Positions 1 to 15,476 of a stretch of DNA of 58,443 nt are shown here, in pieces. The notes under the pieces were generated by a model that saw nothing but the letters and a program-made list of their open reading frames with translations, made no database searches and was not told the DNA's origin. Numbering within the stretch: the stretch's first letter is position 1; every line of letters starts with the position of its first letter. Location: the IMG/VR virus record IMGVR_UViG_3300031758_000088, positions 1-58,443 of that record, one strand, 5' to 3'. Made by a program: the position numbers and the translations under genes. The stretch is from a virus. Its lineage: Duplodnaviria; Caudoviricetes.

Positions 1-1
1 A

Positions 2-3000
2 GACCGCCGGGTCTCCGTGAGCTGCCAGAGGAGCCAGAGAGGCAATCAGTCCCTTGACCTTGGTGTCGATGGTGGTGACGCCGTTGCGCAGGACTGGGAT
101 GCCGCCGTTGCGATCACCCATACCCATGGCAGAGGCTGCGATACCCGCTCCAAGGTCAGACATCAGGGCCGCAGATTCTGCGCTCTGGTCTGCGAGGAGG
201 GCTGCACCGCCCATCTGCTCGGCCCTCTTCTTGTCGTAGACCGACATCTGGTTGTAGCGGTTGAGGTAACGCTGACGGAAGCTGGCTGCGCTCTGAGGAG
301 AGATGGCAGAAACCATGCGCTCAACAAAGCCTTTCTCTTGTCGTTTAAACGTTGTCTCACCGATACGGTCGCTGATGTTCGTTGGGATGTTTGGCAGGCT
401 GTATTTGGCCTTGCTGCTCATCCGGGTGAACTTCTCCATCGCCTTCTGTTTGTTGGCATAGGAGAGAGGCTCCACCTCTGCGATCATCAGCACCGATGAC
501 ACTGCGTCATCGTATTGGGCAGTCAACGCCTTGACTGGAATGGACTTTGCATCTTCGGACCGCAAGTGAATGTAAACGGGAACTTCACGGTAGCCGTCCG
601 CGTGCAGCGCCAGCATGCGGTGACGGCCTTCGTGCCCAGTAATTTTCCAGTCTCCATTTTTTTCCGACACAGATAGAAATGGAACTTGGTCGTAAGCCTT
701 CAGCCTCTCGACATCAAGCGGCTCCTGCTCTCGGCGCAGTCTGTCATACGTGTCGGACGATGCCGTGGCGTTAACAAATTCAATCGGGTTAACAAGTGCA
801 AGGTAACCCTTGGTCTTGTTCTCTGCGTCACTCTGGGTGTACATGGATTCATTCCACAACTTCTCAAAGCGATCATCAGAGTAGCGCACCTTCTTCAAGC
901 TGTAGCGCATGTCCTTGGACTCGCGGCTGAATTCACCAATGTTGCCCGTGACGGACTTAACCTGCTCTGCTTTAAACACAGCAAGGTTCTTGTTGCCGTA
1001 CTCCTGCACGTAGAACGAATCAAAGCCAAACGACTTCAATGCGTCCTGAACAATCGGGTCTTCAATCGTTGACCACAAACCATTTGAGATGTCCTTTTTA
1101 AAGGTGCTGGCTTTGGAGCTGGACTTTTTAAGGCGGACAACGGGGTCAGAGCCGCTCAGCTTTTGGTCGGCAATAATTTTCTCCGCAACCATGGCGGCGT
1201 GTTCGCTGTTCTCGTAGTCGAATGGCGTCTCTGCGCGAACCCACAAGGGGTAGATTCGCATCTCGTCAGTGGACTTGCCCTCATCCTTTGCGCGGTCCTC
1301 TGCAAACTGCTCAGCAAAGTCAGGATCGGGGCTGACGAAGATTGGCTTGCTCTCAAGGAACGTGGTGAACTCGGATGCGGAGCCGTGGTACATGACTTGC
1401 GGACGACCCTCGTCCATGATCTGGCTGCCACCAAAGAAGAGTTTGAACTCCTTGGTCGATGGAGGGGCCTTGTCATATGCGGCATCTTCCGCCTCTTTTG
1501 CGGAGGGGAAGCTGGTGCGGAGACTGAACTTCCCAGTCTTCACGGAATGCTTGCCAATCAAAACTGCGTAGTCTTGTGATGCGGCTTGGTTTTTGACCAA
1601 GTAGCCATCAAAGCCAGCCCTCTTAACATTGCGCTCCCAATTGCTTGCGCGTTCTGCGGACGAGTCGCCCTTGGCGTTCTTGATGATTTCAAGAGGGTCT
1701 GTTTTGGTGTCGTACAGATTTTTCAACCTGATGACGTGAGGAGTGCCGCCAACACCAGCCTCGGGCCGGACTCCCTTGCCGTTGTCAACGTAGAAATAAA
1801 TTCGGCCACGAATGTCCGAGTTTTCTTTTTCGTTTAAACGCTCACTCTCCATTCCGCGCAGACCGGTGCCGTGGAACTCGGAGATGAGTGTTGGGCGTCT
1901 CTCTTTGCTGAAGTGGACGCCGACAGCGCTTACCGATCCTCGCGTTGGCGTTCCGTATTCTTCTGTTGGCTGGCCGAAGTCAACCGCATTACCGCGCTCT
2001 CGACCTCCGAGGCGAGCAGCTCCTCTGGCGTCAATCCATTTGTCTCTGAGCGAGATTGCTTCTTCGGAAATGGCCTGAAGACGGCGACTCCCTTGCCCCC
2101 GAACATCTGCCCCGGCTTCTCCTTGAATCTTTCCACTGTCGCCATATCGTGTTTCCTTTAAGTAGTCGCTTCTTGTGTCGGGCCAAACGAGTGAACTGTG
2201 GAATGTCTCCGGGTCGGAGACACGAATCTTTCCATCGTAAGGGAATGATTCGACAGCATCGATGATGGCCTCATGGTATTGAGCATCGGTAAGGGTGTCA
2301 ACGTTGTCGTTGTATGCAGAGAAGTTGCCGTACAGCAAGGCCCCATCACGCAACGTATCACCATCCGCCTGTGGGACGTTCTGCGCAATGTGTTGACGCA
2401 ACTCGCTTAATTGATCCGCAGTCATGCCCTCTGGGACAACAACCTTCACAAACCCAGCCTGATCGCCAGAGCTCTTGTTGTCCTCATCAAAAGCAACCAT
2501 TGCCTTTTGGTCGAGCACATAACCAAGCACCCGGGCAAGCTCGTCAAGCTCTTGCTCTGTGGCCTCGTCTGGGGCTTGAACAATGATGTTGGGGTTGACC
2601 TCGCCCTCGTAGGTGCCCGTAGAGAACTCGTACTTGTAACCCTTGAGTTCGAGCTCAGAGAACACAGAGGACACCACCCTGTTGGCAACGGCCTTGGTTG
2701 CGTTTAGACGCTCCGAAGGCGTCATCTGCCTCCACTTCTCTGCCGAGATGTGGTCAGGGTTCGGCGCTACCTCTGCGACTACTCCTTTGCGGAGGGAGAA
2801 CTTTTCTCCATCGAGTCCACGAGCTTCATCAGAAACTGCGATCTCCGTTCCGGGCTCATCCCTGCCGTCAGGTTTTTGATCGAAGACCACACTTGGTCTT
2901 GCTCGTCCAGAACCCTGATTGGCTTGGGCGATGATTGCTTCTTCGTATCCGATGTCATCTGCTTTTCTCCCGCTCAGTTTTTCATAAAGGCGTTTCTCAT

Positions 3001-6000
3001 AGTACCAAAGGGCGGCCTGAATGTCAGCCAGACTGAGGTTGATTCCTTCTCCACGCAGCAAAGCTTGAGCCTTGCGTGCTGCGTCGTACATGAACTTTCT
3101 GTCGGTGGCTGTAAACGGAGCCTCCTCCAGCATCTCAAACTCGTTCTTGTAGATGGTGTTTGCCATCTTCTCAAGGTTGTGTTCAAACAGCAACTGCTCG
3201 TAGGCATCACCAGCCTTCTCTTCGGCAGCTTTAAACCAATTTTCTTTTGCGGCCTTTTTGGATGGCTCCTTCGCCCCCGCCAAATGCTCAAGCTCGGTTG
3301 TCCAACCGTACTCCTCATACTTGTTTCGCAAAGGAATGGTGGCGGCAGTAACTTCATCCCGAGTGGCATCGGGCTGTTCCATCATGTCTCGGAACTTGTT
3401 GATGGAGGCTTCTGTGGCCTTGGGGATGAGCAAGCCGCGCATGCGATTGATGGAACGAGTCCACCACAAATCCATGGTCAGGTAGCCCTCTGAGCCGGAA
3501 AGGTTGGCGTAGAACGCGCCAAGCTTAGGTCCAAAGTAAACCGCTGCCGCTGGCACAACAGTGTTGGCGAGATAGCTGCCATCCGTCTCTTCGCCCATTT
3601 CTCGTAAACGGGCGTTCATTTCTTTGACGGTAATTTCTTTGAGCAACACCTTCTCAAAGTCTTGACCATACTTGCTCAACAAGTCTTGGATGACTTTCAA
3701 GTTGTTTTGGAGCGCGGTTGGACGACGATTGCCCATGGCAACCAATCGCTTGCCGTTACGAAGCTTGCCATACAGCTTGATGGCGTTGTCGATGTTCTTT
3801 GCAACTCGCTCCCCGTTGGATGTAACGGCAACCAAAGCCGAGAACACCGAACGGGCATGCTTGTTTGTTCCAAGCTCCGGGAATCGCTTGGCAAGACGCT
3901 TAACAGCATTGGGGTAGTTGTTGGAATACCAACCCAAACCAGTGCCAGTCTTGGTTGATGTCTGCAACTGATGCGCCACCTCATCGGCGATGGCTTCAGC
4001 AATCCGAGTTGACTCGTCTTGAGTCAGTTTGTTGCGGTCCATTGCACCAAGCTGGTCAAGTGTCTGCTGGTTAAGCGCCTTGGCAATGTCTCGCACGTTG
4101 TTAAAGCGACCGCGAACCGCATCAGTGTTTAAACCAAGCTCTTGCTGCGAAACAGCAGTCTGCTTCTCCATCAACTTGCGGGTTGACATGGGTATGCCTT
4201 CGCCAGCAAGGCTGTACTTTGGCTTTTCTTTTTTCTCGGTAGAGGGTTTGGCCTTCGGTTCCTTTTCCTCTTCGGCCTTCTCTTCTGGCTTGGCTTTTGG
4301 CTCTTCCTTCGGAGCAGTCTTCTCTTTTGGCTTGCGGGACTTCAACTCACCACGCTCAACGCGCTGGAACACATCATCCGCAGACTCAAAGCCAGCACCA
4401 CGCAGGGCTTGACCAAAGTTCATGAAGAAGTTCTTCAGCTTCTTGAACAGCGCAGCAATCATGCCGGGAGGCGGTGTGGCTCCACGGTCGTAAGCACCAA
4501 ACGCATCAGCGATGGCTTCTTCAATGATCTCTTCTTGAGTCAGGCCAATCTTCTTGTAGGCATCCAGACGGCTCATCGTCACAGGCTTGCCGTCCACCTC
4601 GATCTCGGAGGTCTGGTCTTGGAGGTACTCCTTGATCCACCTCTTGTTGGCTTGCTCAGTCAGGGCCTTCCATTGCTGCGGGGTGAAGAACTCCAAGTCC
4701 TTCAGCGCATGCAGGGACTCATGGCGCATGGTTTGGATGGGGTTGGCCTCATCCAGAGAGACCTGAATCAGCTTGTCGAGGTAAGCACCACCCGCGTTGT
4801 TCTTGATCTGCTCAACAACGTTTACACCCACATCGCCAAGGTTGAACTTGGCCAGCATAGGCTTGAGCTTTGACTCAAGCTCCTGCGTGCGGGCAGCAAC
4901 TTCAGCTTGTTTAAACACCTGAGGATCGCGCTCGCGCAGCGTGGCTTCGGCCTGCTCCAGAGTTGGGAATACCCCAATTGGCTCAGCACCACGGTTAACG
5001 GTGAACTCGTTCTGCACGTCAGTGCGGGAACCGATGGGGGTAAAGCTCAAGGGGGCGGAGTAGCTGGCAATCTTGTCGTTGATGTCCTGAATCTTTAAGG
5101 CGGCCTCCTCCTCCTTTTGGGAGAGAAGGGCCTTGGCTTGGACGTACTCATCGGTGTCAGTCTGGCCCGTGGCCTCCATGACCTCAAGCTTACGCTGCTC
5201 ATCCTGAATGGACTTGCTGATCTTGTCAGACTCAGCCAAGAGACGGGCTTGCTCCTCCTGACGAATCTCGGTCAGGGACTGAATCTTCCTCTCCACCTCT
5301 TCTTGGGAGGCAACGGAGGTCAGAGGCTTGTCTGAACCTTCGGCAAAGATGCCAAACGACTCAGGTACGTCTCGGCGGGAGATTTCTCTGCGGGTGGCTG
5401 TGTAGCCACCGGGGAACTCTGTTGGGGGCTCTACGGGAGCTTTCTCTGGGGCTTCAGCAGAAGGCGCGACAGGCTCGGCTTGACCGAAGCCTTTGCGGAA
5501 CTCTTCCTTCTCCTTCTCAAAGGCATCCACAGCCTCAGGAGGCTTGGCCTCAGGACGCACCATCGCGGCAATGGGGGCAGCGCCCAGAGCGCCTGTGAGC
5601 GCTTCTTGGGTCGCAGCACCTGCCACGCCTTTAAACGTGTCTACGTCGTACCCCGCACGCTGCAATGCAACGTTCTCAGCGACCTTCTCTTGACCGCCTT
5701 GAGCAGCCTCTGGGACAGATTCCTTGAGAACTGATTCGCCAACCCTGCGAGCCATGCCGGGGGCTGCTCCTGCTCGGCCAGCCTTGGAGAACAACTCTTC
5801 AACACCCTTGGAGCCAGCAACATAACCAAGACCGGCACCGAGGGCGATCTGGTCAAAGTTTCCACCGAAGTACGACTGGGCTGCGTCAGCCTTTTGCTTG
5901 GCAACCTCTGGGTCTACGCCAGCCTCAATCTCGGCCTTCAGCACGCCGTCATAGATGGAGCCTTTGACAGCGCCAGCACCTTGGGCGGTACCAATAACCT

Positions 6001-6538
6001 TGGGGGCTTGTTGAGCAACGGACCGGATGGCAGCTTGAGAGCCAGCGGTTAAACGCATGGCAGCAGCCGCAGGGGCTGCAAACAAGGTGGGCAGGTACGG
6101 AACAAACGAGCCAATGGCCTGCGCGGCAGACTGGAGAGGAGCTTCAGCAACGTTTAAAGCACCAGCCTTGATCTCTTCCCATGTGCTGCCAGACTCTTCG
6201 GCAGCCTTCATCCGGGCGGCCTGACGCTGCATCTCAGCTTGACGCTCTGGGGTCATGCTCTGCTGAAGACTCTCCACGCCCTTGCCAAGCTTGGAGGAGA
6301 TGAAGTTGTCAGCGCCAGCCACATCGGTGAGCGCCTTGGCGCTTCCCGCAGCACCAACACCAAAGGACTTGGCTATGTCTCCAAGGGAGAACCCAGCGTC
6401 TTTGGCTGGGGCTGTTGGCATGACGTCCGACTCGATTGCAGAGCCGCCGTATTTCCGGGCCAGATCATCAAATTTTGATGCGCCGGGTTGAACTTGGCTT
6501 CCGCCGTATTTTTTTGCCAGCTCATCAAGGTTCATCAT
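2..6538 (-). CDS. Large polyvalent virion/ejection protein (>2,179 aa, C-terminus beyond window): zincin, HhH-glycosylase-like, unknown domain, two ADP-ribosyltransferase-like domains, ParB/Srx-like domain, LPD38-like region
   Basis: Not in ORF track. ATG at 6538 overlaps the upstream stop (ATGA); the N-terminus and the 4.9 kb-to-base-2 stretch translate by hand in one frame, and I saw no stop. Motifs: HESLH..EEAIADAF (~4720-4500); GWY..GPKLGAFYANL..TMDLWWTR..QAALWYYEKRLY (~3940-2985); VHFS..YFYV..GFDGY (~1920-1600); MYHGS..F..F..FVS..GFDS..VFKAEQVKS..N.G.F (~1393-920); GHEGRHR (617-637). Confidence 0.88.
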   Translation of the reverse strand, partial: MMNLDELAKKYGGSQVQPGASKFDDLARKYGGSAIESDVMPTAPAKDAGFSLGDIAKSFGVGAAGSAKALTDVAGADNFISSKLGKGVESLQQSMTPERQAEMQRQAARMKAAEESGSTWEEIKAGALNVAEAPLQSAAQAIGSFVPYLPTLFAAPAAAAMRLTAGSQAAIRSVAQQAPKVIGTAQGAGAVKGSIYDGVLKAEIEAGVDPEVAKQKADAAQSYFGGNFDQIALGAGLGYVAGSKGVEELFSKAGRAGAAPGMARRVGESVLKESVPEAAQGGQEKVAENVALQRAGYDVDTFKGVAGAATQEALTGALGAAPIAAMVRPEAKPPEAVDAFEKEKEEFRKGFGQAEPVAPSAEAPEKAPVEPPTEFPGGYTATRREISRRDVPESFGIFAEGSDKPLTSVASQEEVERKIQSLTEIRQEEQARLLAESDKISKSIQDEQRKLEVMEATGQTDTDEYVQAKALLSQKEEEAALKIQDINDKIASYSAPLSFTPIGSRTDVQNEFTVNRGAEPIGVFPTLEQAEATLRERDPQVFKQAEVAARTQELESKLKPMLAKFNLGDVGVNVVEQIKNNAGGAYLDKLIQVSLDEANPIQTMRHESLHALKDLEFFTPQQWKALTEQANKRWIKEYLQDQTSEIEVDGKPVTMSRLDAYKKIGLTQEEIIEEAIADAFGAYDRGATPPPGMIAALFKKLKNFFMNFGQALRGAGFESADDVFQRVERGELKSRKPKEKTAPKEEPKAKPEEKAEEEKEPKAKPSTEKKEKPKYSLAGEGIPMSTRKLMEKQTAVSQQELGLNTDAVRGRFNNVRDIAKALNQQTLDQLGAMDRNKLTQDESTRIAEAIADEVAHQLQTSTKTGTGLGWYSNNYPNAVKRLAKRFPELGTNKHARSVFSALVAVTSNGERVAKNIDNAIKLYGKLRNGKRLVAMGNRRPTALQNNLKVIQDLLSKYGQDFEKVLLKEITVKEMNARLREMGEETDGSYLANTVVPAAAVYFGPKLGAFYANLSGSEGYLTMDLWWTRSINRMRGLLIPKATEASINKFRDMMEQPDATRDEVTAATIPLRNKYEEYGWTTELEHLAGAKEPSKKAAKENWFKAAEEKAGDAYEQLLFEHNLEKMANTIYKNEFEMLEEAPFTATDRKFMYDAARKAQALLRGEGINLSLADIQAALWYYEKRLYEKLSGRKADDIGYEEAIIAQANQGSGRARPSVVFDQKPDGRDEPGTEIAVSDEARGLDGEKFSLRKGVVAEVAPNPDHISAEKWRQMTPSERLNATKAVANRVVSSVFSELELKGYKYEFSTGTYEGEVNPNIIVQAPDEATEQELDELARVLGYVLDQKAMVAFDEDNKSSGDQAGFVKVVVPEGMTADQLSELRQHIAQNVPQADGDTLRDGALLYGNFSAYNDNVDTLTDAQYHEAIIDAVESFPYDGKIRVSDPETFHSSLVWPDTRSDYLKETRYGDSGKIQGEAGADVRGQGSRRLQAISEEAISLRDKWIDARGAARLGGRERGNAVDFGQPTEEYGTPTRGSVSAVGVHFSKERRPTLISEFHGTGLRGMESERLNEKENSDIRGRIYFYVDNGKGVRPEAGVGGTPHVIRLKNLYDTKTDPLEIIKNAKGDSSAERASNWERNVKRAGFDGYLVKNQAASQDYAVLIGKHSVKTGKFSLRTSFPSAKEAEDAAYDKAPPSTKEFKLFFGGSQIMDEGRPQVMYHGSASEFTTFLESKPIFVSPDPDFAEQFAEDRAKDEGKSTDEMRIYPLWVRAETPFDYENSEHAAMVAEKIIADQKLSGSDPVVRLKKSSSKASTFKKDISNGLWSTIEDPIVQDALKSFGFDSFYVQEYGNKNLAVFKAEQVKSVTGNIGEFSRESKDMRYSLKKVRYSDDRFEKLWNESMYTQSDAENKTKGYLALVNPIEFVNATASSDTYDRLRREQEPLDVERLKAYDQVPFLSVSEKNGDWKITGHEGRHRMLALHADGYREVPVYIHLRSEDAKSIPVKALTAQYDDAVSSVLMIAEVEPLSYANKQKAMEKFTRMSSKAKYSLPNIPTNISDRIGETTFKRQEKGFVERMVSAISPQSAASFRQRYLNRYNQMSVYDKKRAEQMGGAALLADQSAESAALMSDLGAGIAASAMGMGDRNGGIPVLRNGVTTIDTKVKGLIASLAPLAAHGDPAV
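1930..2145 (-). CDS. Putative overprinted small protein (71 aa) nested in +1 frame of polyvalent gene
   Basis: AAGGA SD 8 nt before ATG; G/C-ending codons typical of the genome, while the host frame becomes an R/G-rich linker with atypical codons. Confidence 0.5.
   Translation of the reverse strand: MATVERFKEKPGQMFGGKGVAVFRPFPKKQSRSETNGLTPEELLASEVESAVMRLTSASQQKNTERQREDR
2779..2958 (-). CDS. Putative overprinted small protein (59 aa, MTSDTKKQSSPKPIRVLDEQDQVWSSIKNL...) nested in +1 frame of polyvalent gene
   Basis: GGGAGA SD 7 nt before ATG; typical codon usage; lies in the linker after the HhH-like domain. Confidence 0.5.
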   Translation of the reverse strand: MTSDTKKQSSPKPIRVLDEQDQVWSSIKNLTAGMSPERRSQFLMKLVDSMEKSSPSAKE

Positions 6539-8244
6539 TGCACTCCGGCTTCTGCCTTAAATTTGTCTGCGGCTTCTTTTGTCGGGAAGTCGTATGTCTT
6601 GCCGCCAGCCGTAACTGTAAACGAACCTCCGCCGCCGCCCTTGATTTTTTGCTCCAGAAGCTTGAGGCCAGCCATCCGTTCATCACGAAGCTTACCCGGT
6701 GGCAGTTGTAGCGCAGAGCCAAGTTGCTCAGCATATTGCTTAGCCATGGCGGACTCAAGCGGGTCTGGCTTTGGCTCTCCACGTTTAAAGAGTGAGAAGC
6801 TTTCGAGCAGGGCGGCAGCCTCTTTTGGCTTTCCTTCTGCCTTGAGTGCCAGATACTGCGCAAGGTACTTCATGTCACCGCTGCCAGCATCTGCCGCACG
6901 AATCTTGGCAATCTCCATTTGGCTCAAGCGGTCCAGCTCGGACTGAATGCGGCGCTCATCCACATTCGCAAGCTGAGCCAAGGTCTCTGCACGGGACTTC
7001 AGGCGCTCTTGGTAAGAGCGGTTGGCAGCGTCCATGGACTTGGCTCGAGCACCATAAATCTCCTTGGCACCCTCGTATTCTTGGGTGTCTGCGGCTGTGT
7101 AGAGCTCGTTCATGCGCTTCTCAAGAGCCATCTCTTCTGCGCGTTTGCGGTCTTGGTTGGCTGTGTAAGCGGGAGCCAAGCCAGTGCCTCCCTTGTATTG
7201 AGCGGCCTGACCCCAGACACGGATCAAGTCATCCAAGCCGGATGGACGCGTCTTCTCAAAGGTTGCACGTTCCTGATCTGCACGGGCCTTGCGCTCTTCA
7301 TAGCGCTTGCGCATGTTCTCCTCCAGCATGGCTTGAGGAGACAGAGCGTTTTGCTCAGCAATGATGCTCTGAGGCGTTGGCTTGACGTTGGGCTCATTCA
7401 AGGCTGCGTCTGCTTGCGCAAAGTAAGGGCTGCGGCTTGCTGCGGCAGGTAGGCCTGTTTGTGCTGGTTGTGCAGCAGGACGAGGTGCAGCCTCAGGCCG
7501 AGGCGCTGGTCGCTCAACCCGGCGAGGAGGAACGGCTGCTTGCGGTCCTGCCATGGCTGTGGCTTGAGCCTCAGAAACGGAGGCTGGGCGCTGTGGTGGC
7601 AGTTGTCGAGCGGGGGCTTCAGGTGCTGGCATGCCTCCTGATGTCTTGAGTTGCTCAAGTTGTGCGCGTGCCGCCTCGGCTTGAGGCGCTCCAGCGCGAG
7701 TCAGAAATTCCACTTTGCGCTCAAGCTCCTGTATTGCTCTTTCCCTTCTCTCTTTGTCGCGGCCAAGTTCAGCAGCCTGACTTGACAACTCTTGCTCCTC
7801 GGCACTTGCTGTGCCCATGGTGTCCCCGCCATTGCTGTAGCCGACGATGCCACCGGGTTTAAACGCAAAGCGCACAGGCACGGAAGTTAAACCTCCGCGA
7901 GCCATCATTGCTGGCGCTTCGGGTTGATCTTCGGGCTGGGGAATGCCAGCGGGAACTGGTCCGGGACGCTGCGCCATAGCCATCTGTTGCTGCTGTTGCT
8001 GCTGCTGCATGTTGTTTGCAGCCATCAAGCCAGCCTTCTGCTCGATCTGCTCTTTGACGCTGGGCTGCTCACCCTGAGCGCCACCCATCATGTTCTGCAT
8101 GCGCTTGTTTAAATCCATCTTGGCCTGCAACGTACCGGTCGCAATCCAAGGTGGAATGATCCGTGGATCAAAACCATCGGCGTACTTCTTCAACTCTGTG
8201 ATTGGCAAATCGTTTGCCAGAGCTTGTGCTTTAACGAGGTTCAT
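6535..8244 (-). CDS. Internal virion/ejection protein
   Basis: 569 aa; Q/A/P-rich plus coiled coil; MARGG/FKPGG/YSNGG motifs; position in ejection-protein block. Confidence 0.7.
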   Translation of the reverse strand: MNLVKAQALANDLPITELKKYADGFDPRIIPPWIATGTLQAKMDLNKRMQNMMGGAQGEQPSVKEQIEQKAGLMAANNMQQQQQQQQMAMAQRPGPVPAGIPQPEDQPEAPAMMARGGLTSVPVRFAFKPGGIVGYSNGGDTMGTASAEEQELSSQAAELGRDKERRERAIQELERKVEFLTRAGAPQAEAARAQLEQLKTSGGMPAPEAPARQLPPQRPASVSEAQATAMAGPQAAVPPRRVERPAPRPEAAPRPAAQPAQTGLPAAASRSPYFAQADAALNEPNVKPTPQSIIAEQNALSPQAMLEENMRKRYEERKARADQERATFEKTRPSGLDDLIRVWGQAAQYKGGTGLAPAYTANQDRKRAEEMALEKRMNELYTAADTQEYEGAKEIYGARAKSMDAANRSYQERLKSRAETLAQLANVDERRIQSELDRLSQMEIAKIRAADAGSGDMKYLAQYLALKAEGKPKEAAALLESFSLFKRGEPKPDPLESAMAKQYAEQLGSALQLPPGKLRDERMAGLKLLEQKIKGGGGGSFTVTAGGKTYDFPTKEAADKFKAEAGVQ

Positions 8245-8253
8245 GTTCCGACC

Positions 8254-10110
8254 TTATTTTGTAGTGGCAGGAGTGGTAGGAGCGGCGGGAGCGGTAGGAG
8301 TTTGACCAAGGTCTTTGAGGGCTCCCTCAATCGTTTTGTAGTTGGTAGCCAAACCAGCAAATTGCGATTGCAGCCTGCTCATGGCATCTTGATCCACAGC
8401 AGTAGTATTTGCACCGATTGGCAGGCCAGACAACAAGCCCAACTGGTACTTTGGCATACCGTAAGCAAAGTCACGCTGCTCCTCGAACTGCGCCTTGTCT
8501 GCTGCGATACCTTCGGATGTAATGCCACGCTCTTGAGCGCCCAAATTCGCCAACTGATCGATGGACTTGAGGCCAAAGTTTGCGCCAAACTGACGCGATG
8601 CCTCTTGTGCCTCGCGTTCTTTGTTGAACTGGCCCAGACCTGTGTCGTAGGCAGTCTTGTAGCCCTGACCCAAAACATCTTGCTGTTTGTCCAACAGATT
8701 GCGGCGACCTTCGGATTCCATGATGGCCTGACGGCTACCGCCGTAAGCACCGGCTTTTGTCAGTCGTCCAGCATCAGCCAGACGGGCAATGTCAGAAGAC
8801 CGTTGCAATTCGCGCAACTGCGGGTCCAGTGAGGCTTGCAGGTACGGGTTCATGTACTGCTGGGCGGTCTGGGCATTGAAGCCGCCAGTGAACTGCGTGG
8901 GGGTGTATCCGGCTTGAGCCATCTCACCTGCGCCAGCAAAGGCTTGCTGCTGAAGGCCCGAGGCTCCAGCGGTCAGTGGGCCTTGGTAGGCTTGGTACGG
9001 GGCGTTTGCCAGAGCAGCGCCCTGCCCCAAGGCGTTGGTCACGTAGTCGCCAACCCAAGGAGAGAGGGTGGATGTTCGGGAAACATCTTGAGGTACGCCG
9101 CCAGCGCCTGTTGCTGTTGGGTTTGCGGTGCTGGGTGTGCCGCCAGTGTTGAATCTTTGGACTTCGCCACCACCAGCGTAGGCGGCAGCCAAGCCGCCAG
9201 CGGCTGCAATGAACTTGTCAGGGTCAATCTCTTTGCCCTGTTCTTTGGTTCCGGTGCGAGCCACGCGAATGCGGTCCATCATTTCGTAGAGCTTCTCAGC
9301 TCCAGCCTCGGAGTTGCCGTTACCGAGGTGAGACACCACATCCGCAGGGATTACAAACTCCCCATGGCTGAGAAGAGCTGGCTGCTCTTCATCAATGCTG
9401 GTCTCAATCTCGTCGGCCATGCCGTCCGTCTTGCCACGCAGGTAACGCCCTGCGTCTGCGATACCGCCTTGTGCCATAGGAATACCGCCTCGTGCGGTGA
9501 GTTGTGTTGGAATTTCAGGAAGGCCACCAGCTTGAGCGGGGGCTTGTGTTGGACGGCTGTAGGCCAAGTTCATCTTGCCAGCGTAAGGGTTGGGGGCTGG
9601 AGCGGGACGAGGCTGGTATGCAGCCTGAATGCCGGAGGCCTGACCAGCAGAAGCAGTCTTTGCGGCAGCCAAAGCCTCTGCGTCACCTTGAGCGGCGTAA
9701 CGGGGGTCTGTGAAGTACTGACGGCCAGCCTCGCCGGGACGTCGGTTGGGATCGTTGTACTGAATCTGCTCACGCACCATGTCCATCTTGGGGACTGGCT
9801 TGTTGTAGCCGCCTTGCTTGTCTTGGTTCATTAGACTGTACGCGCCAATGCCAAGAGCGCCAAGTTTCGCCAAATCGTATTTGCCGTCTTTGTCTTTCAG
9901 CATGCTCAGCGCTTTGCTGCCAAACCTCTCAACCAAATTTAGCCACTGGGGATTGCCGGTCAGGGCATCTTCAATTTGGTCATTGGACGGAGAGCTCCAG
10001 TTTTCCATTGTGGTGTCTGGATCAATACCAATTGACTCCCAAAAATCATACGAGTCACCACTCAAAGAATCATCTTCGTAGATGTTGCCCAATTCGTCCG
10101 TGTAAGCCAT
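8254..10110 (-). CDS. Internal virion/DNA-transfer protein with tape-measure-like xxGG..GEFV motif
   Basis: 618 aa; MAQGG..G.TDG.AD.I....LSHGEFVIPADVV; YMNPY..GAYGGSRQ region typical of podovirus ejection proteins. Confidence 0.75.
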   Translation of the reverse strand: MAYTDELGNIYEDDSLSGDSYDFWESIGIDPDTTMENWSSPSNDQIEDALTGNPQWLNLVERFGSKALSMLKDKDGKYDLAKLGALGIGAYSLMNQDKQGGYNKPVPKMDMVREQIQYNDPNRRPGEAGRQYFTDPRYAAQGDAEALAAAKTASAGQASGIQAAYQPRPAPAPNPYAGKMNLAYSRPTQAPAQAGGLPEIPTQLTARGGIPMAQGGIADAGRYLRGKTDGMADEIETSIDEEQPALLSHGEFVIPADVVSHLGNGNSEAGAEKLYEMMDRIRVARTGTKEQGKEIDPDKFIAAAGGLAAAYAGGGEVQRFNTGGTPSTANPTATGAGGVPQDVSRTSTLSPWVGDYVTNALGQGAALANAPYQAYQGPLTAGASGLQQQAFAGAGEMAQAGYTPTQFTGGFNAQTAQQYMNPYLQASLDPQLRELQRSSDIARLADAGRLTKAGAYGGSRQAIMESEGRRNLLDKQQDVLGQGYKTAYDTGLGQFNKEREAQEASRQFGANFGLKSIDQLANLGAQERGITSEGIAADKAQFEEQRDFAYGMPKYQLGLLSGLPIGANTTAVDQDAMSRLQSQFAGLATNYKTIEGALKDLGQTPTAPAAPTTPATTK

Positions 10111-10121
10111 CTTGATTTCCT

Positions 10122-13100
10122 TTAGCGTAAGAGGTTCAGCAGGTCATCTGCCGTGATGTTCTCCGCCAGCAGGTCATCAATGTACCCACCTGAGGCGATT
10201 TTAGTTTTTTCTGCTGGGTTTGTCGAAGAAGCCATTTTGAGCTTCTGCGTCCCGAATGGGTCTCCGAACGGGTCACCGAACGGATCGAAGTATTCCATTG
10301 CGCCATATAGCGGGGTGCTGACCTGCTGGGATTGCTGGAATGCCTGCGGCAATTGCTGGGCCAAGGATTGGGCACTTTGCTGCCCCTGCGCCACAACCCC
10401 GCGCACATTTGCGATCTTGCCCTGACGAGCAGCTTCTTCTGCTGCCAGTCTTTGGCGCTCGGCTTCTGCTTTTTTGGCCTCTTCTTCCCGGGCCAGTTGC
10501 GCCTTCAGGTCCGCCTGACGCTGAGCTTCGTTGGTTGCCAGTTGGCCGTACAGACCAGTGGGCCCAAAGGCGGAGCCGACCGGAGCACGCCAGTCTGTGT
10601 TTACACCGCTGACCACCTGAGTCAGGAAGTCGATGTCTGCCTGAGTGATTTGCTTGTCGCCAGTCACGTCGTAGGTCAGGTCCATGCTCCGCTGACCGCC
10701 GAGCATCTGGTTGAGCGCGTCGATGTCCGCTTGAGTGGCTTGCCGTCCCTGAGTGCCAACCAAGCCCTGAAGCTGCTGGTTCTGGGTGTTGAGCTCGCCG
10801 ATAGCTTTCTGCGTGGCCTCTTGGTAGGTATCACCCTGCTTCACCAACTCATCAATTCGAGCATCTACCTGTTCGCCAAGGCCAGTGATTTGCTCTTGCG
10901 TCTGCTTAGCGGCCAAGTCAATGGCTGACGCAAAGTCCAAACCCATATCCGCCATGGCGTCAGCAAGGTCCTTTTGACCCTCTGTGAGTGCGTTGTACTT
11001 GTCTTGTACGTCCTTGGACAGCGTGTCAATTGCGCCAGTGGTTTCTTTTTGTGAAGACTCCAGCGTCTTGTAGATTCCAGTCGCTTCTTTCGCCTCATTG
11101 ATGTTCAGTGTTGCTGGGTCATCCTTGACAGAGGGAGCACCGACAAGGCCCGTCAATTCTTTTTGAACAGACGCAGCAGCATCCTCACCTCGCGCTGCCG
11201 CATCGTCGGCTGCTTTGTACAAGCCTGTTGCAGGAGTGGTTTTGGTGGCTGGGCTGCCAATCACCCCCAAGATTTGAGTGTCCGTCAGACCCATGGCCTC
11301 AAGCTGACCGATGATGCCGGTAGCCTCGGCATCTGCCCCACCGGGAGAGCCAATCAGCTTCTCCAGAGCATCGACATCCGTTTGCACAGCACCAACCTGC
11401 TCCGTCGTCGCCAAGTCTTTGGTGGCAGCGGAGATGGCTGTATCCAAGTCCGCTGGGGTAAGGCCGGGATTTGCCGTCATGTAGTCGGTGATGGACTTTG
11501 TGACGTCTGCTGCGGACAGGCCGGGGTTGGCCGTCATGTAATCCGTGATGGACTTGGTGACATCCTCTTTGGTGATGCCTGCTGGGAACTTGATGTTTGA
11601 GATCGCCTTCTCAATGTCCTTCTTGGTGGCGAAGTCCTTCGTCGCCGTAGAGATGGCGGTGCTCAGATCGGTCTTGGTCAGACCGGGATTGGCCTTCATG
11701 TAGGTGGATATGGCGGTTTCCACATCGGTCTTTGACAGTCCGGGATTGGCCTTCATGTAGTCAGAGATCGCAGTCGTTACATCTGCCGGAGTGACGTTAG
11801 TAATGGAGCCAAGCTGGTCAATGATGGAGTTGTACCGTGCGGCATCCAAGTTCTCTGTGGCCTTGCCAGTCAAGCCAGTCTGGTCGTACTGACCAACCAA
11901 CTTGTCAATGTCAGCCTTTGTGGGATTTTTCAGGCCAAGCGCAGCGTAAGCGTCTTTGGCTTCCTGCTCTGTCACCGTGCGTGCGTTTGCATACGTTCCA
12001 ACTTCGGACTTAACGGCGTCCTGCTTGATGTTTGCGCCTTGGCGCACAAACTGATCCAGCTCTTCTTTGTTTGGCTTGTATCCAACGTCTTTGAAAAACT
12101 GCTCAGCTTCTGCGCGTGTCACTTGGCGGGGCGCAATGTAGTCTTCGATCTTTTTCTTTGCGTCCGCCTCTTTAATTTTTCCAGCAAGGGATTTGGCTTC
12201 GTCGGCGGTGAGGTTGGTGTACCCCAAGTCGCGCATCATTTGCGCGGCCTCTTCCGCAGTGGTAGCCAGCGGGTCGTATTGCGCCTCCAGTGCTTTTAAG
12301 GTTGATACCTCGTCTTTTTGTCCAACAAACGAATCAATCTCTTGCTTTGTTGGGTTGACGTACCCAATATCAATAAGCGCCTGCCGAACCTCATCCTCCG
12401 CAACCACACGGGGGTCCATGTATTTTTGGATTTCTGAAGCCAACGCCGGGTTTAGCAGCTCAGCCTTTCCGCCAGTCACGGCAGAAATGTCGGCGGCACT
12501 GGCCTTGAATCCAGAGTCGGCAAACATTTTGCTTGCGGCCAAGTACTCCGCTGGCGTTGTTTCGTCCAAACCCTGCTGCCGAATGGCGTCCCCACTGAGT
12601 GCGCCTTTTGCGTCTTTGCCAAGCACAAAAGCGGTAGAAACTGCGGACCCGCCAAGGCCACCCTTCAAACCGGCATCAATAAACCTGTCCAGATTTTGCT
12701 TGGTGAAGAAGTCTTTGTTTTCCGCAAGAAAAGATTCAGCCGCAGCGCTGCTCATCTCTTGGAGAATTTCGGTCCCGCCTTCTTTTACAAAAGCGCTTCC
12801 AGCCTCTTTGGCGGCATTTTTATACCAAGCCCCAATCACCTGCTCGACCGGAATCTTCGACAAATTTAATCGGTCTACGATGGCCGACGGAAGAACGGAG
12901 TCAAGCGCCGCATTAAACCCGCCAACGACGGTTGATATTGCCAAGTCCTTCAAATCCACCTTGCCGCTTTTTGCGTCATAGACGTTCTTGAAAACTTCAG
13001 GGACGTTCTGTGAGGCGCTTGCAGCCAAGATGGCTGGTGTCGTAAATTTTGCAGCCACCGCCAAACCGGCAGTGCTTGCAGCAGCTTGCGCCGCTGCAAT

Positions 13101-15467
13101 TGCTTCAGCCCCAAAAACTCCTTTGGATGCTTGTACTGCCAATTCCTTTTTGATGGCTGCGTCCATTGCCGCTTTTGCCGAAGCGCGAGCAGCCACGCCA
13201 GCAGCCCCACCCATGAGCAAAGAAGGCGCAGTTGTCACCACGCCCTCCATTACGGATTCCAAAACGTAGGTGGCAGCACTGCTTAGGTCGTTGACGTTTT
13301 TGTACGACGCAACACGAGCAGGGTACTTTATGTTGATCTGCTTCATTGTGGCCTGAGCTTCGGCCATTTGCTTCTTGAAGTAATCTTCGTTCCCTACCGC
13401 CTTTGCGGCCATGGCTGGCAAGACATCGGCAAGCAGTGAGGCAGTCTGGGAAGAGGACCGCATGATGCTGTCCGACGCAGCAGACAGGTAGTAATCCAAG
13501 CCCCGCCCAACGACATTGCCGTTTTTGTCATATTTGAACTGGTCGGTTAAGCTTTTGATGAGCTCGTCGTTTTCGTCATAAAGCTGGATAAGGCCCTTGT
13601 CCTTGTTCCACATGAGCGTGTAACCGCTGTCATCTCTCGAGTGTTCCCATCCGGGGTCTTTTTTACCCGTAATGACAATTTCACCCAAATCATTTTCATA
13701 CGCCCAGTCAATTGGCCTATTGTCTGCGGCGTCTTCAATGGTTAGCTTGCCAGAGCCAACCAAGCTAAGAGCTTCTTGTTTTTGGCTTTCGCTCAAAGTT
13801 GATACGGAGTCTTTTAGCTTGGTTGTTAATTCGCCAGCCTTGGTTTCGGGTAGCCCAATTATCTGTCGCAATTGCTGTTCAGTGGCCGACTCTCCAAGGC
13901 CTGCGTCATCCCATATATTTTTTGCCTCCGACTCTGATGTGTAGAGGCTGTCAACGTATTTCAATGGGTCGGTGGACGAGACAATTGCCTCAGCGGCACT
14001 CGGGGTCAGACTGCCGAACAGACGCTCGTATTCTTTTCCGGCGTCAAGCAAAGCCATGGCTGTTGCTTGGTTTTCTTTTGTCTCGGCAGGGATGTTGTTT
14101 GCTGGGCGCTCTGGTGGTTTGCTGAATTCCGAGCCCAAGTCAGAGTACAGGCCATCCCAGTAGCTCTTCTTGTTGGATGGCGCGACAGGAGCCTGCGGAA
14201 CATTTTCTGCGGCGGCGGGTAGTTTTCCGTTTTTTACCGCCTCCATCAACAATTGGCTTTGTGATTTTGGTGTGCTTGTTCCAAGACTTATTCCAAAAAC
14301 TTTCCTTTCAGGGGGATTCTCGGCACGCGAGACAGCATCGGCAATTGCAGCCGCACCTGCTGGTGTGCTGATTCCTGCGGACGCATTTCCTGAAACACCA
14401 ATCCCAGAAGACGCAATCGCAGATGAAAGTGAGCTTGTTACGCCGTTGACAGCCTGCCCAATCGCACTTTGATTTACTGAGTTTGCAATACTTGCTGGCA
14501 TGCCGCTAAGGCTTGCCATGGTCCCCAACGCCATGCCCCCTAGTGGCCCAGCAGACATCGACTGAGCAGCAGCGCCAACAACCGCGCCAGTGACGGCGTT
14601 TGCAACAGCCCCACCCAAGTTACCACTCAACGCTGCGGTTACTGTATTAACACTCAAGCCAGTAGCTTGCGCAACCTGACCGATTGCCAACCCCATTGCT
14701 GCCTGACCGATTTGGCCGTTGGCAATTGCGCTTACCGTATTGGCGCTGATGGCTACACCAGTTGCATTCGACAACGCAGTGCCAACGATGGAGGCCGCTA
14801 TCTGTCCCACAACAGATGAGACAGAGTGGCCTTGTGCAATAGCGTTTGCGGCAGTGGCAATTGCGCCAATCGCGGGGCCTCCAATGGCCCCCATGATTTG
14901 TCCAATGTTGTTGTTCAACCCAGAGTGAACCGCCATGGAAGCAAGAGCTTGGTTGACGGTTTGATTTGACGAAATATCTGCATTCCCGAGACCATTTGCC
15001 GCCATAAGAGACAGTTCGGCCATGGTCATGCCGTTGGTGGCTACGTTGCTTCCTGTTGCGTTTGACTGCCCCATCATTGCAGCTTCGGCAGGGGAAATAC
15101 CAAGCTCGGCCTGTAAGCTGGCAAGCGCCGTTTGCGCAGGGTCTGTTTCTGAGGTGGAAAACCCAGAGTCGCCACTGATGCCCGGATCACCCGGCCCCGC
15201 AGGAGTCCCACCAGCACCCGGCGAAGCAGCCCCAACCTCGCCAACACCAACACCAACGTCACCAATGCCGGGGGCCGAGTCTCCAGTTCCATTGCCAGTA
15301 CCAGCAGCACCCGCTCCCGAAGAGTCACCCGTAGCGGAAGAAGCGGCACCCGTTCCGCCGTCACCAGAATCACCAACGCTGCCACCATCATCAAATTGCA
15401 TGATTGGCTGATCACGATCCTCAACAAGACCCTGTCTTTTCAGCATGTCTATAACTTCTGGCGTCAT
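10122..15467 (-). CDS. Very large internal virion protein with internal repeats
   Basis: 1781 aa; G/A-rich hydrophobic N-region, DYMxANPGL repeats, EF-hand/dockerin-like DVTGDKQITQAD near C-terminus. Confidence 0.7.
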   Translation of the reverse strand: MTPEVIDMLKRQGLVEDRDQPIMQFDDGGSVGDSGDGGTGAASSATGDSSGAGAAGTGNGTGDSAPGIGDVGVGVGEVGAASPGAGGTPAGPGDPGISGDSGFSTSETDPAQTALASLQAELGISPAEAAMMGQSNATGSNVATNGMTMAELSLMAANGLGNADISSNQTVNQALASMAVHSGLNNNIGQIMGAIGGPAIGAIATAANAIAQGHSVSSVVGQIAASIVGTALSNATGVAISANTVSAIANGQIGQAAMGLAIGQVAQATGLSVNTVTAALSGNLGGAVANAVTGAVVGAAAQSMSAGPLGGMALGTMASLSGMPASIANSVNQSAIGQAVNGVTSSLSSAIASSGIGVSGNASAGISTPAGAAAIADAVSRAENPPERKVFGISLGTSTPKSQSQLLMEAVKNGKLPAAAENVPQAPVAPSNKKSYWDGLYSDLGSEFSKPPERPANNIPAETKENQATAMALLDAGKEYERLFGSLTPSAAEAIVSSTDPLKYVDSLYTSESEAKNIWDDAGLGESATEQQLRQIIGLPETKAGELTTKLKDSVSTLSESQKQEALSLVGSGKLTIEDAADNRPIDWAYENDLGEIVITGKKDPGWEHSRDDSGYTLMWNKDKGLIQLYDENDELIKSLTDQFKYDKNGNVVGRGLDYYLSAASDSIMRSSSQTASLLADVLPAMAAKAVGNEDYFKKQMAEAQATMKQINIKYPARVASYKNVNDLSSAATYVLESVMEGVVTTAPSLLMGGAAGVAARASAKAAMDAAIKKELAVQASKGVFGAEAIAAAQAAASTAGLAVAAKFTTPAILAASASQNVPEVFKNVYDAKSGKVDLKDLAISTVVGGFNAALDSVLPSAIVDRLNLSKIPVEQVIGAWYKNAAKEAGSAFVKEGGTEILQEMSSAAAESFLAENKDFFTKQNLDRFIDAGLKGGLGGSAVSTAFVLGKDAKGALSGDAIRQQGLDETTPAEYLAASKMFADSGFKASAADISAVTGGKAELLNPALASEIQKYMDPRVVAEDEVRQALIDIGYVNPTKQEIDSFVGQKDEVSTLKALEAQYDPLATTAEEAAQMMRDLGYTNLTADEAKSLAGKIKEADAKKKIEDYIAPRQVTRAEAEQFFKDVGYKPNKEELDQFVRQGANIKQDAVKSEVGTYANARTVTEQEAKDAYAALGLKNPTKADIDKLVGQYDQTGLTGKATENLDAARYNSIIDQLGSITNVTPADVTTAISDYMKANPGLSKTDVETAISTYMKANPGLTKTDLSTAISTATKDFATKKDIEKAISNIKFPAGITKEDVTKSITDYMTANPGLSAADVTKSITDYMTANPGLTPADLDTAISAATKDLATTEQVGAVQTDVDALEKLIGSPGGADAEATGIIGQLEAMGLTDTQILGVIGSPATKTTPATGLYKAADDAAARGEDAAASVQKELTGLVGAPSVKDDPATLNINEAKEATGIYKTLESSQKETTGAIDTLSKDVQDKYNALTEGQKDLADAMADMGLDFASAIDLAAKQTQEQITGLGEQVDARIDELVKQGDTYQEATQKAIGELNTQNQQLQGLVGTQGRQATQADIDALNQMLGGQRSMDLTYDVTGDKQITQADIDFLTQVVSGVNTDWRAPVGSAFGPTGLYGQLATNEAQRQADLKAQLAREEEAKKAEAERQRLAAEEAARQGKIANVRGVVAQGQQSAQSLAQQLPQAFQQSQQVSTPLYGAMEYFDPFGDPFGDPFGTQKLKMASSTNPAEKTKIASGGYIDDLLAENITADDLLNLLR

Positions 15468-15476
15468 GTCTTGTCC

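Follow-up and report, generated by a model that had tools for sequence, protein, structure and literature searches.

In the stretch of DNA analysed here (the window, 58,443 nt), the structural operon ends with a gene for a late giant protein that is a chain of swappable modules, with the same short K/R-x-S-L peptide at each joint downstream of a zincin-like domain. The window is an entire IMG/VR contig, linear and 93% complete, and the genome is that of an uncultured aquatic podophage of roughly 62 kb. The protein is an additional polyvalent protein in the sense of Iyer, Burroughs, Anand, de Souza and Aravind (2017, J Bacteriol; PMC5512222), that is, one phage or plasmid polypeptide combining 2–15 unrelated effector-type domains, and it has a previously undescribed junction signal. 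Our preferred reading, which we put at a probability of roughly 45%, is that of a multi-effector ejection protein whose embedded metallopeptidase would cut at the [KR]-x-S-[LI] joints; packaging and ejection, peptidase activity and cleavage are all things that we infer. That zincins may process polyvalent proteins is an idea already published (PMC5512222), and the K/R-x-S-L joints supply exact, testable cut sites for this old notion of phage proteins split into effectors.

The gene occupies 2..6538 on the minus strand, as do all features given below. Its frame, free of stops over 2,179 codons, continues past the contig end, which cuts the 3′ part, and it is absent from the ORF list because it is open at that end. 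An earlier note, made from the sequence, had reported an ORF of more than 2,179 aa missing from the list and had conceded that a stop codon in the part not fully translated would undo its proposal; frame translation confirmed that the frame is open throughout. The full-length protein is predicted to have ~2,894 aa. The gene lies behind those for three further large orphan proteins, and this last place in the operon, together with analogues detected in virions, makes it probable that the protein is carried in the virion and ejected. AlphaFold models show at least six separately folding blocks within the 2,179 aa, so that several unrelated domains share one phage polypeptide, and signature domains of the polyvalent class are present, PF18760 (ART-PolyVal) above its cut-off in the window and PF18857 (LPD38) in relatives.

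The N-terminal unit (4907..6538; aa 1–544), Ala/Gly-rich (33%) over its first 340 aa, is free of the junction motif, and residues 60–327 weakly match phrog_2206 (E 1.4e-4), a PHROG for the N-terminal part of virion RNA polymerase of the N4 type. The zincin-like (gluzincin-type) domain that follows (4334..4906; aa 545–735) carries HESLH at residues 606–610 (nt 4709–4723) and, further on, the EE of EEAIADAF (nt 4517–4522). H606, E607 and H610 are conserved in 171/175 proteins, and E673 and E674 in 174/175, and we consider these almost invariant HExxH...EE residues to be putative metal ligands. A zincin fold has a three-stranded sheet, a helix at the N-terminus and a pair of them at the C-terminus. 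In the AF2 model, residues 590–720 reach pLDDT 83–96, with HESLH on one helix (606–614) and the EE pair (673–674) on a later one, as looked for in an MPTase; the stretch preceding HExxH has pLDDT of only 62–78, and helices are modelled at the place of the expected beta-sheet. The MPTase core layout given by Iyer et al. (PMC5512222) fits an HExxH with a downstream EE as seen here. Searches with the domain gave no peptidase family in Pfam at E<=1, nothing relevant in a PDB profile search, no match to the PDB with Foldseek at E<=0.001, and, in BFVD, solely fragments without a name from further giant proteins of phages; the best VIA-align match across 48,161 chains was a helicase-nuclease (Z 6.2), with no peptidase among the 50 matches listed. 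The domain's position in the Atlas is near the LPD23, LPD1 and MuF_C clusters. Because these fold searches found no peptidase, the zincin call is a motif-based one, and the zincin named in the earlier note stands as a conserved HESLH and not as a recognised peptidase fold. A Lys/Glu-rich linker (4220..4333; aa 736–773; 34% K+R, 29% D+E) follows, predicted to be disordered (pLDDT 33–39) and of differing length between relatives.

All five [KR][FY]SL motifs that had been listed beforehand were located, and all lie beyond this linker. The first, KYSL (4208..4219; aa 774–777), is disordered in the AF2 model, and its counterpart in relatives is K[YMLK]SL. In model B, which covers the others, the second, KFSL (2792..2803; aa 1246–1249; model residues 17–20), sits in or beside a stretch with pLDDT<50 (1–19); the third, KFSL (1520..1531; aa 1670–1673), is itself such a segment (441–444); the fourth, RYSL (896..907; aa 1878–1881), overlaps another (650–654); and the fifth, KYSL (395..406; aa 2045–2048), falls within a longer one (811–852). 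Composition alone predicts 0.09 such motifs, and none of 5,000 shuffles gave five (maximum, 2). The proposal that they mark domain borders rather than the interior of folds agrees with the models, since 5/5 lie in or against stretches with pLDDT<50, between predicted folded blocks, such residues making up 63/271 of the AF2 model and 191/950 of model B. As modelled, then, the junction peptide would lie in disordered linkers between modules.

These motifs delimit four cassettes. Cassette 2 (2804..4207; aa 778–1245) is the most conserved module (82% mean column identity over the 13 sequences of alignment A5) and is DUF7178-like, its Atlas neighbours being DUF7178 clusters; it had been called HhH-like (residues 774–1245), for which we obtained no supporting match, Pfam yielding none of the HhH families at E<=1 and a profile search no PDB relative. 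Cassette 3 (1532..2791; aa 1250–1669) comprises a tandem ferredoxin-like domain (about aa 1250–1447) and a beta-rich domain; for this cassette a second look with VIA gave AcrB porter subdomains (Z 9–10) and a phage SAM lyase (6znb; Z 8.7, 113 residues aligned). Cassette 4 (908..1519; aa 1674–1877) is an ART-PolyVal ADP-ribosyltransferase domain, with PF18760 matching residues 1709–1870 (nt 929–1414) at E 1.5e-15 and 58.6 bits, where the cut-off is 31.2, or 65.8 bits when the segment is searched alone. Its fold resembles 6kyf (Z 6.9) and also MbcT/RES toxins; H1718 is invariant and E1770 nearly so among 12 sequences, and we regard the two as candidate catalytic residues. The fourth motif closes the ART tail, GxF...DMRYSL, which is kept in relatives. 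Of the two ART-like domains originally proposed, this one is secure, whereas the second amounts to 38 residues of cassette 3 (1622–1659) that an iterated ART profile matched weakly (i-E ~0.009). Cassette 5 (407..895; aa 1882–2044), mostly at pLDDT 70–88 in model B, is possibly ParB/Srx-like. The GHEGRHR motif (nt 617–637; HEGRHR, residues 1969–1974), from which that label had been drawn, is present and kept in 9/9 sampled homologues, but family matches are weak (PFIN, PF22162, E 0.05 for the window protein and 0.011 for a relative; 2/41 scanned rows), and a PDB profile search gave none. This cassette occurs in 0/15 distinct related loci, yet in 66 collected proteins.

Beyond the fifth motif only the first 131 aa of a constant C-terminal unit (2..394) are present, the remainder, with LPD38, lying past the contig end. 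The unit is conserved in 15/15 distinct loci; in 107/175 relatives the part after the last junction is 844–853 aa long, and K[YF]SLP.IP stands ahead of the 849-aa unit in 107/175. In relatives it matches phrog_9854, phrog_18222 and phrog_14770 at their C-termini and bears LPD38 about 550 aa beyond the last junction; of the 120 relatives listed, most carry PF18857. The LPD38-like region that had been placed in the window has no counterpart there: Pfam gave no LPD38 match in residues 2045–2179 at E<=1, and in P0002, a close full-length relative, the domain is at residues 2601–2771, past the end of the window protein. Thus, among the folds first proposed for the segments between motifs, ART-PolyVal was recovered, HhH, a second ART and LPD38 were not, and ParB/Srx received weak support.

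Across relatives, where the generalised form is [KR]-x-S-[LI] rather than the [KR][FY]SL of the window copy, the motif is strongly enriched, with 339 strict occurrences against 13.8 expected in P0001 plus 120 family proteins (121), and 209 of [KR][FYLM]SL against 31.9 expected in 145 representatives, at <=50% identity, of more distant ART-bearing proteins. It also coincides with points where modules are exchanged, as a check of motif positions across the 120 relatives and the 145 distant proteins, suggested at the outset, made clear. Within 10 aa of a motif fall 40% of 38,596 internal alignment starts and 50% of 32,315 internal alignment ends, compared with 4.6% for random positions, and the breakpoint peaks are on the motif K and the motif L. 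The 945 occurrences join 90 left-flank to 97 right-flank clusters in 165 combinations. These comparisons support, at the level of sequence, a placement of [KR]-x-S-[LI] exactly where exchangeable modules meet.

Breakpoints exactly on the motif and 165 different pairings of flanks are also what would be seen if the motif were never cut and served as a structural or evolutionary joint, capping domain ends and marking exchange points so that frame and fold are preserved, and the ART tail ...DIR[FY]S is indeed general in ART-PolyVal proteins outside the family. We nonetheless consider this explanation unlikely. In 15 loci, 65 motifs are written in 54 different 12-nt words, drawing on serine codons of both families and on each of the six Leu codons (among the five copies in the window, too, the DNA sequence differs); with codon choice so free over twelve bases, the motif cannot guide homologous recombination, and it is the peptide rather than the DNA that is under selection. 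Disorder is predicted for the motif, which would belong to neither flanking fold, and a simple spacer would not retain K/R, S and L/I between unrelated flanks. Moreover, L follows the S of the ART tail in 71/121 family tails but in only 20/194 tails of other ART proteins, and R[FY]SL is missing from three standalone ART proteins that retain the tail. A short peptide shared by every border, lying in flexible linkers and kept in relatives, is the pattern of a polyprotein-type signal, and all three of these properties were found.

The distribution of the motif along the chain associates it with the zincin-like domain. In 175 proteins, with one zincin each, its density per 1,000 aa is 0.11 upstream and 2.20 downstream of that domain, supporting, as far as sequences go, a confinement to the region downstream of the single HExxH...EE domain, where it is ~20 times denser. 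This link is confounded by common descent because motif and zincin both mark one protein family; the second motif position tracks joint type more than lineage, so that co-variation between motif and zincin is anecdotal, limited to a KASL lineage (L008, L010 and L011). The same distribution speaks against a role as a repeated docking signal for procapsid packaging or for the chain's passage through portal and tail channel, or as a serine modification site, which would cover the translocation signal once envisaged. A peptide that is repeated, disordered and basic-hydrophobic, with an invariant serine, in a protein probably packaged and ejected, would suit such roles, but it is missing from the first 770 aa and from the operon's three other large proteins, which would have to make the same passage, and the available literature excerpts describe no packaging or ejection signal like it; we judge docking or modification very improbable.

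A cut made by another enzyme is a further alternative, whether by an unrecognised phage protease, by one whose gene falls in the 7% of the genome that is missing, or by a periplasmic or cytoplasmic protease of the host after ejection. It gains from the zincin fold having gone unconfirmed in Foldseek, VIA, PDB profile and BFVD searches, and from reports that MPTase-bearing proteins such as N4 vRNAP are unprocessed (PMC5512222). On the other hand, no prohead protease family was found in the head module, nor any protease family between the genes for portal and capsid. The capsid protein, which is short (302 aa), the portal, the candidate scaffold and the other large virion proteins of the window lack the motif, the window outside this ORF having five relaxed matches, of which one is strict and lies in a doubtful plus-strand ORF. 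With another protease at work, the strictly kept HExxH...EE within this protein would have nothing to cut, and we hold this alternative to be decidedly unlikely.

In the reading that we prefer, cleavage by the embedded metallopeptidase, the chain would run from a ~545-aa N-terminal unit through the zincin-like domain and the charged linker to variable cassettes (here DUF7178-like, ferredoxin-like plus beta-rich, ART-PolyVal and possibly ParB/Srx-like) and a constant C-terminal unit of ~849 aa with LPD38. The peptidase would recognise [KR]-x-S-[LI] as its processing sites, either inside the capsid or once the protein has been ejected, and would free the cassettes to act as individual enzymes, in the manner of a viral polyprotein, and the common joint would allow cassettes to be swapped by recombination with processing retained. 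The signal postulated in the earlier note survives as a selected peptide at module borders, in disordered linkers and after the zincin only, even though several of the domain labels fail and no search recognised the fold of the zincin-like domain as that of a peptidase.

Among known phage proteins, gp47 of podophage phi24B (2,811 aa; bioRxiv 10.64898/2026.04.10.717836) and the 'DarB-like' gp69 of Burkholderia podophage JC1 (4,515 aa; PMC9144972) both bear LPD38 and have been detected by mass spectrometry in purified virions. Like the window gene, whose LPD38 is seen in relatives, each is the largest gene and stands at the end of the virion module, and ejection has been proposed for both; processing and junction motifs are not treated in the available portions of either report. 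A tblastn search of 50,697 phage records gave no detectable similarity between either protein and the 2,179 aa of the window, and only six weak partial matches, to other phages. In T4 (gp21) and phiKZ (gp175), a prohead protease cuts internal head proteins at short motifs. The SPN3US gp245 system, in the excerpts available, likewise involves ejected internal head proteins cut at short motifs. In all three, the protease is a separate protein and sites also occur in capsid and scaffold proteins, whereas no protease of that kind was found here, where the motif is restricted to one protein. Closer in kind are phage P1 DdrB and N4 vRNAP, packaged proteins with a zincin-like domain, the latter with a PHROG weakly matched by the N-terminal part of the window protein. 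As far as the available text of Iyer et al. goes, DdrB bears an MPTase and is processed before packaging with one reported cut and no repeated motif, and N4 vRNAP, which is packaged uncut, is reported, along with ArdC and TraC1, as an MPTase-domain protein delivered unprocessed (PMC5512222). Eukaryotic RNA virus polyproteins, an analogy already drawn by Iyer et al. (PMC5512222), also combine several enzymes per chain, an embedded protease and a short conserved peptide at borders in flexible linkers, but they are unrelated and use another protease class, and in the present case relatives differ by shuffled cassettes, with cleavage being putative. The nearest likeness is to the polyvalent proteins themselves, which share with ours the giant late multidomain phage protein, ART-PolyVal, LPD-type modules (LPD38, in full-length relatives) and an HExxH...E domain (PMC5512222). 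Unlike these, for which the available portions of that article name no junction or cleavage motif, the protein described here has [KR]-x-S-[LI] at every post-zincin joint and an ordered architecture of fixed N-terminal unit, variable cassettes and fixed 849-aa C-terminal unit.

The late operon on the minus strand of the window, which is one entire linear IMG/VR viral contig of 58,443 bp with an estimated completeness of 93%, is of typical podophage type, running from small terminase, large terminase, portal and an HK97-type capsid protein (302 aa) through an SU10-type adaptor, a tail fibre (1,365 aa), an endolysin and a virion protein (627 aa) to four orphan proteins (212, 1,781, 618 and 569 aa), with the polyvalent frame last. 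This frame extends from nt 6538 down to nt 2 with zero stops in 2,179 codons and continues past the contig end, bearing out the earlier note's claim of an ORF of more than 2,179 aa; it is missing from the ORF list because open-ended frames are unlisted by default. Polyvalent relatives on longer contigs have 2,300–3,650 aa and, by sequence comparison, the protein of the window should measure about 2,894 aa at full length, with about 715 aa missing. The orphan ORFs (6535–16115, minus strand) occupy the interval from the virion protein gene to the polyvalent gene. None of them matches a Pfam or PHROG family at the thresholds applied, and by position they are candidate ejection (pre-ejectosome) proteins. 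Elsewhere in the operon, a homing-endonuclease-like ORF (26487–27239, minus strand; phrog_314, E 7e-27) lies within the tail/adaptor gene block and adjoins the SU10-type adaptor gene (27251–27904), and a mid-structural-module ORF (31798–32547, minus strand) strongly matches phrog_1574, a family of unknown function, and has weak glycosyltransferase-type Pfam matches (Anp1, E 8.7e-5; Glyco_transf_8, E 0.004). The window has no tRNA genes, and megablast of nt 1–7000 against 50,697 phage records gave zero matches. By terminase, phage DSL-LC04 and Pelagibacter phage HTVC027P are the closest relatives in culture, and neither gave a hit to the polyvalent protein.

The motif [KR][FY]SL occurs five times in the polyvalent protein, at residues 774, 1246, 1670, 1878 and 2045, in exact agreement with the linkers listed in the earlier note. 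Composition predicts 0.09 occurrences and the maximum across 5,000 shuffles was two, which rules out a chance origin. Elsewhere in the window the strict motif turns up once, in a plus-strand ORF that is itself doubtful, and relaxed forms four more times; the portal, the candidate scaffold and the three giant proteins next to the frame contain neither. A prohead-protease site common to capsid and scaffold proteins was likewise sought in this window and none was found. Codons differ among the five copies, and across 15 related loci 65 motifs show 54 distinct 12-nt spellings: serine is encoded by AGY in 53 and TCN in 12, and leucine by all six of its codons. Such free codon use rules out a DNA-level repeat or recombination site and, on this evidence, the junction signal is a peptide, not DNA.

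AlphaFold2 models of residues 520–790 (13-sequence alignment, mean pLDDT 72) and 1230–2179 (17-sequence alignment, mean pLDDT 71) predict where this peptide lies relative to folded blocks. In the first, the core at 590–720 is confident and the stretch 730–790, including KYSL-774, has pLDDT 33–39; in the second, stretches with pLDDT<50 include 1–19, 441–444, 650–654 and 811–852 (model numbering), and the motifs lie at 17–20, 441–444, 649–652 and 816–819. Since only 63/271 and 191/950 residues of the two models are of low confidence, finding all five motifs there is not expected by chance. The domain borders proposed in the earlier note thus appear in the models as flexible linkers between folded blocks. 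The model of 520–790 leaves the first linker undocked and disordered, a result uninformative either way. That the motif is a docking or modification signal is quite improbable.

Querying with the zincin region returned 351 proteins, 1,198–3,814 aa long. Among the family protein P0001 and the best 120 of these 351 (121 in total), the counts are 339 for the strict motif (13.8 expected) and 683 for a relaxed form (188 expected). When the ART cassette was queried, without a profile, against 1.84 billion representatives, 3,112 proteins matched; 145 of the 150 listed were new, and [KR][FYLM]SL occurs in 80 of these 145, 209 times in all against 31.9 expected. At aligned positions in relatives, joints read KLSL, KMSL, KKSL, KASL, RASL, KFSF or KPSI, from which we take the core to be [KR]-x-S-[LI]; across 754 distinct contexts, 71% have R, K or P as the following residue. 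Only one lineage, that with KASL in the related loci L008, L010 and L011, clearly shows the second motif position varying together with the zincin. Nearly all joints of this lineage are KASL or RASL, with Ala at the second place, and its zincin is the most divergent of the set (HMM scores of 196–220 versus 266–300); in L010 a single RYSL persists behind the ART cassette, which would fit a recent acquisition of that cassette.

Alignments point to exchange of modules exactly at the motif peptide. In an all-against-all BLAST, 40% of 38,596 internal HSP starts and 50% of 32,315 HSP ends fell within 10 residues of a motif, compared to 4.6% of random positions in either case, with the peaks coinciding with the motif K and the motif L. 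Clustering the flanks of 945 motif occurrences gave 90 left and 97 right clusters in 165 combinations, the ART-type tail alone being paired with 33 different right-hand neighbours, and in the related loci L012 and L013 a DUF7178-like cassette is followed directly by an ART cassette, and the latter in turn directly by the C-terminal unit, with a motif at each joint. RMSI, a frequent relaxed match, has a single partner on each side, as for an internal site and not a joint. The junction motif could also be a universal joint that is never cut, a rather unlikely reading. Against cleavage by the embedded domain stand the precedents for MPTase-bearing proteins (MPTase, the zincin-like metallopeptidase of polyvalent proteins) delivered uncut that are described in the text of Iyer et al. 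(PMC5512222). Cleavage is favoured by the enrichment of S followed by L behind the ART tails of the family, with leucine in 71/121 family tails versus 20/194 in other ART proteins, and by three standalone ART proteins that keep the tail and lack the motif. Tails of the I-R-K-S-L type were seen in a few distant representatives.

The HExxH domain is present in exactly one copy in each of 175 proteins, with a median start at residue 553, and the motif follows it: upstream its density is at chance level (0.11 per 1,000 aa; 11 in 102,744 aa), compared to 2.20 per 1,000 aa downstream (781 in 354,208 aa). In 107 of the 175, a unit of constant length, 844–853 aa (~849 aa), comes after the last joint, K[YF]SLP.IP. 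This unit carries LPD38 in relatives and matches three PHROGs of functionally uncharacterised giant proteins at their C-termini; LPD38, listed in the earlier note as an LPD38-like region of the frame, lies outside the window. Given these constant ends and the variable middle, we view the protein as a chassis, composed of an N unit with HExxH and the C unit, around a slot for exchangeable cassettes. Thirteen motif-bearing representatives seemingly lack a zincin, and since nine of them start inside known modules and have the C unit, these are taken to be N-terminally truncated gene calls of the same family. The extreme N-terminus of the window protein bears a tandem duplicated peptide, LDELAKKYGGS/FDDLARKYGGS (aa 3–33; about 6440–6532, minus strand), and the N-termini of relatives bear other duplicated peptides (EFSLEEALG twice; RNLSAELYG twice), then a conserved KDAGFSLGDIAKSFG. 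An Ala/Gly-rich N region (aa 60–327; 5558–6361, minus strand) weakly matches positions 124–417 of the N4-type virion RNA polymerase PHROG (E 1.4e-4), a similarity that hints at a common packaging or ejection module.

The domain at aa 545–735 is called zincin-like on motif evidence. Its HESLH (residues 606–610), reported in the earlier note as a zincin, is indeed present, and the putative metal ligands are conserved: of 175 proteins, 171 retain H606, E607 and H610 (the other four have gaps) and 174 retain E673 and E674, whereas D678 is retained in 161, with E in its place in 11 more. The EEAIADAF segment resembles the NEAISD motif of thermolysin. In the text of Iyer et al. (PMC5512222), the MPTase core of polyvalent proteins is described as a helix bearing HExxH, a variable insert and a subsequent helix that supplies a Glu. 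Fold and profile searches recognised no peptidase: Pfam gave no peptidase family at E<=1, a PDB profile search nothing relevant, Foldseek no PDB match at E<=0.001, VIA-align no peptidase among the 50 matches listed from 48,161 chains (best Z 6.2, AdnA), and BFVD only pieces of other giant phage proteins. Neighbours in a language-model Atlas were LPD23, LPD1 and MuF_C clusters, and ahead of HExxH the model is only moderately confident and lacks the sheet expected there. A motif read by some other protease is an unlikely explanation; the unrecognised fold counts against the zincin-like domain as the enzyme, and the finding of no other protease counts in its favour.

The cassettes themselves differ in how far they can be named. 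The earlier note's HhH-like label for residues 774–1245 is supported by no test; the cassette (aa 778–1245; 2804–4207, minus strand) is DUF7178-like and the most conserved, with 82% mean column identity over 13 sequences and 70–90% identity to the window copy, versus 30–65% for most relatives of the ART cassette. Conserved to this degree, it looks like the single payload that cannot be spared; when standalone forms were sought, most matches were fragments from short contigs. In the next cassette (aa 1250–1669), aa 1250–1447 (2198–2791, minus strand) are modelled as a tandem ferredoxin-like fold, resembling AcrB porter subdomains (Z 9–10) and the phage T3-type SAM lyase 6znb (Z 8.7, 113/125 residues aligned); the fold is common, so a role as an anti-restriction SAM lyase is no more than a lead. 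Of the two ART-like domains proposed in the earlier note, one is a solid ART-PolyVal match, and the other, in the second half of aa 1250–1669, amounts to similarity over 38 residues at best (i-E 0.009, iterated ART profile), an hhalign match of 15 columns there proving an artefact of overlapping rows. The model of the solid ART (aa 1690–1865; 923–1486, minus strand) resembles MbcT/RES toxins and 6kyf (Z 6.9), an entry titled only 'anti-CRISPR protein', and also chain B of the cyanophage A4 pre-ejectosome (9k3a_B, residues 944–1601; Z 6.9, 141 aligned). This A4 ejection protein may, by model comparison, hold an unnoticed ART-like domain; ADP-ribosylation goes unmentioned in the A4 paper (PMC12002296). 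The ParB/Srx identity proposed for residues 1882–2044 is a lead from sequence, the GHEGRHR being retained there (HEGRHR at 1969–1974) with only weak PFIN matches.

Taken together, we give a probability of roughly 45% to a polyprotein whose embedded metallopeptidase would cut at [KR]-x-S-[LI], freeing the cassettes in the head or after ejection. This reading is favoured by a signal that is selected as a peptide, disordered and present at every joint, and by its confinement downstream of the protease-like domain and absence from other virion proteins. Common descent confounds the association of motif and zincin, which disfavours it, and the cut itself is predicted. A bolder and very improbable extension would make phage polyvalent proteins true polyproteins with family-specific protease and site codes, the cut here falling between S and L. 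The motif would then read basic, hydrophobic, x and a cut before a hydrophobic residue, the pattern of anthrax-lethal-factor-type zincins, to which Iyer et al. reportedly linked phage MPTases. On this reading all freed effectors would start with Leu, a bacterial N-degron read by ClpS/ClpAP, and the host would destroy the burst of anti-host enzymes within minutes, a timer protecting later phage development.

The polyvalent class and the zincin-processing hypothesis were already known (Iyer et al., 2017; PMC5512222). The main text of that paper, as far as word look-ups go, names no junction or cleavage motif, and none in polyvalent proteins was found in the literature searched by full text; as far as these searches reach, the named candidate cut site is new. 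Hundreds of proteins carry the four-residue signal, one at every joint, which clearly predicts the fragment ends and makes the old processing idea testable. For the evolution of polyvalent proteins, the analysis shows a fixed chassis, with the 849-aa C unit and the protease-bearing N unit, and effector exchange at a common joint; this helps in reading phage counter-defence repertoires from metagenomes and in delimiting effector domains yet to be characterised, the highly conserved DUF7178-like cassette among them. Packaging and ejection of the polyvalent protein would be expected from its gene position and from analogues. In cyanophage A4, four ejection proteins are packed as a pre-ejectosome (PMC12002296), and phi24B gp47 and JC1 gp69, giant proteins with LPD38 that close the virion modules of their podophages, were both detected in virions by mass spectrometry (bioRxiv 10.64898/2026.04.10.717836 and PMC9144972 respectively).
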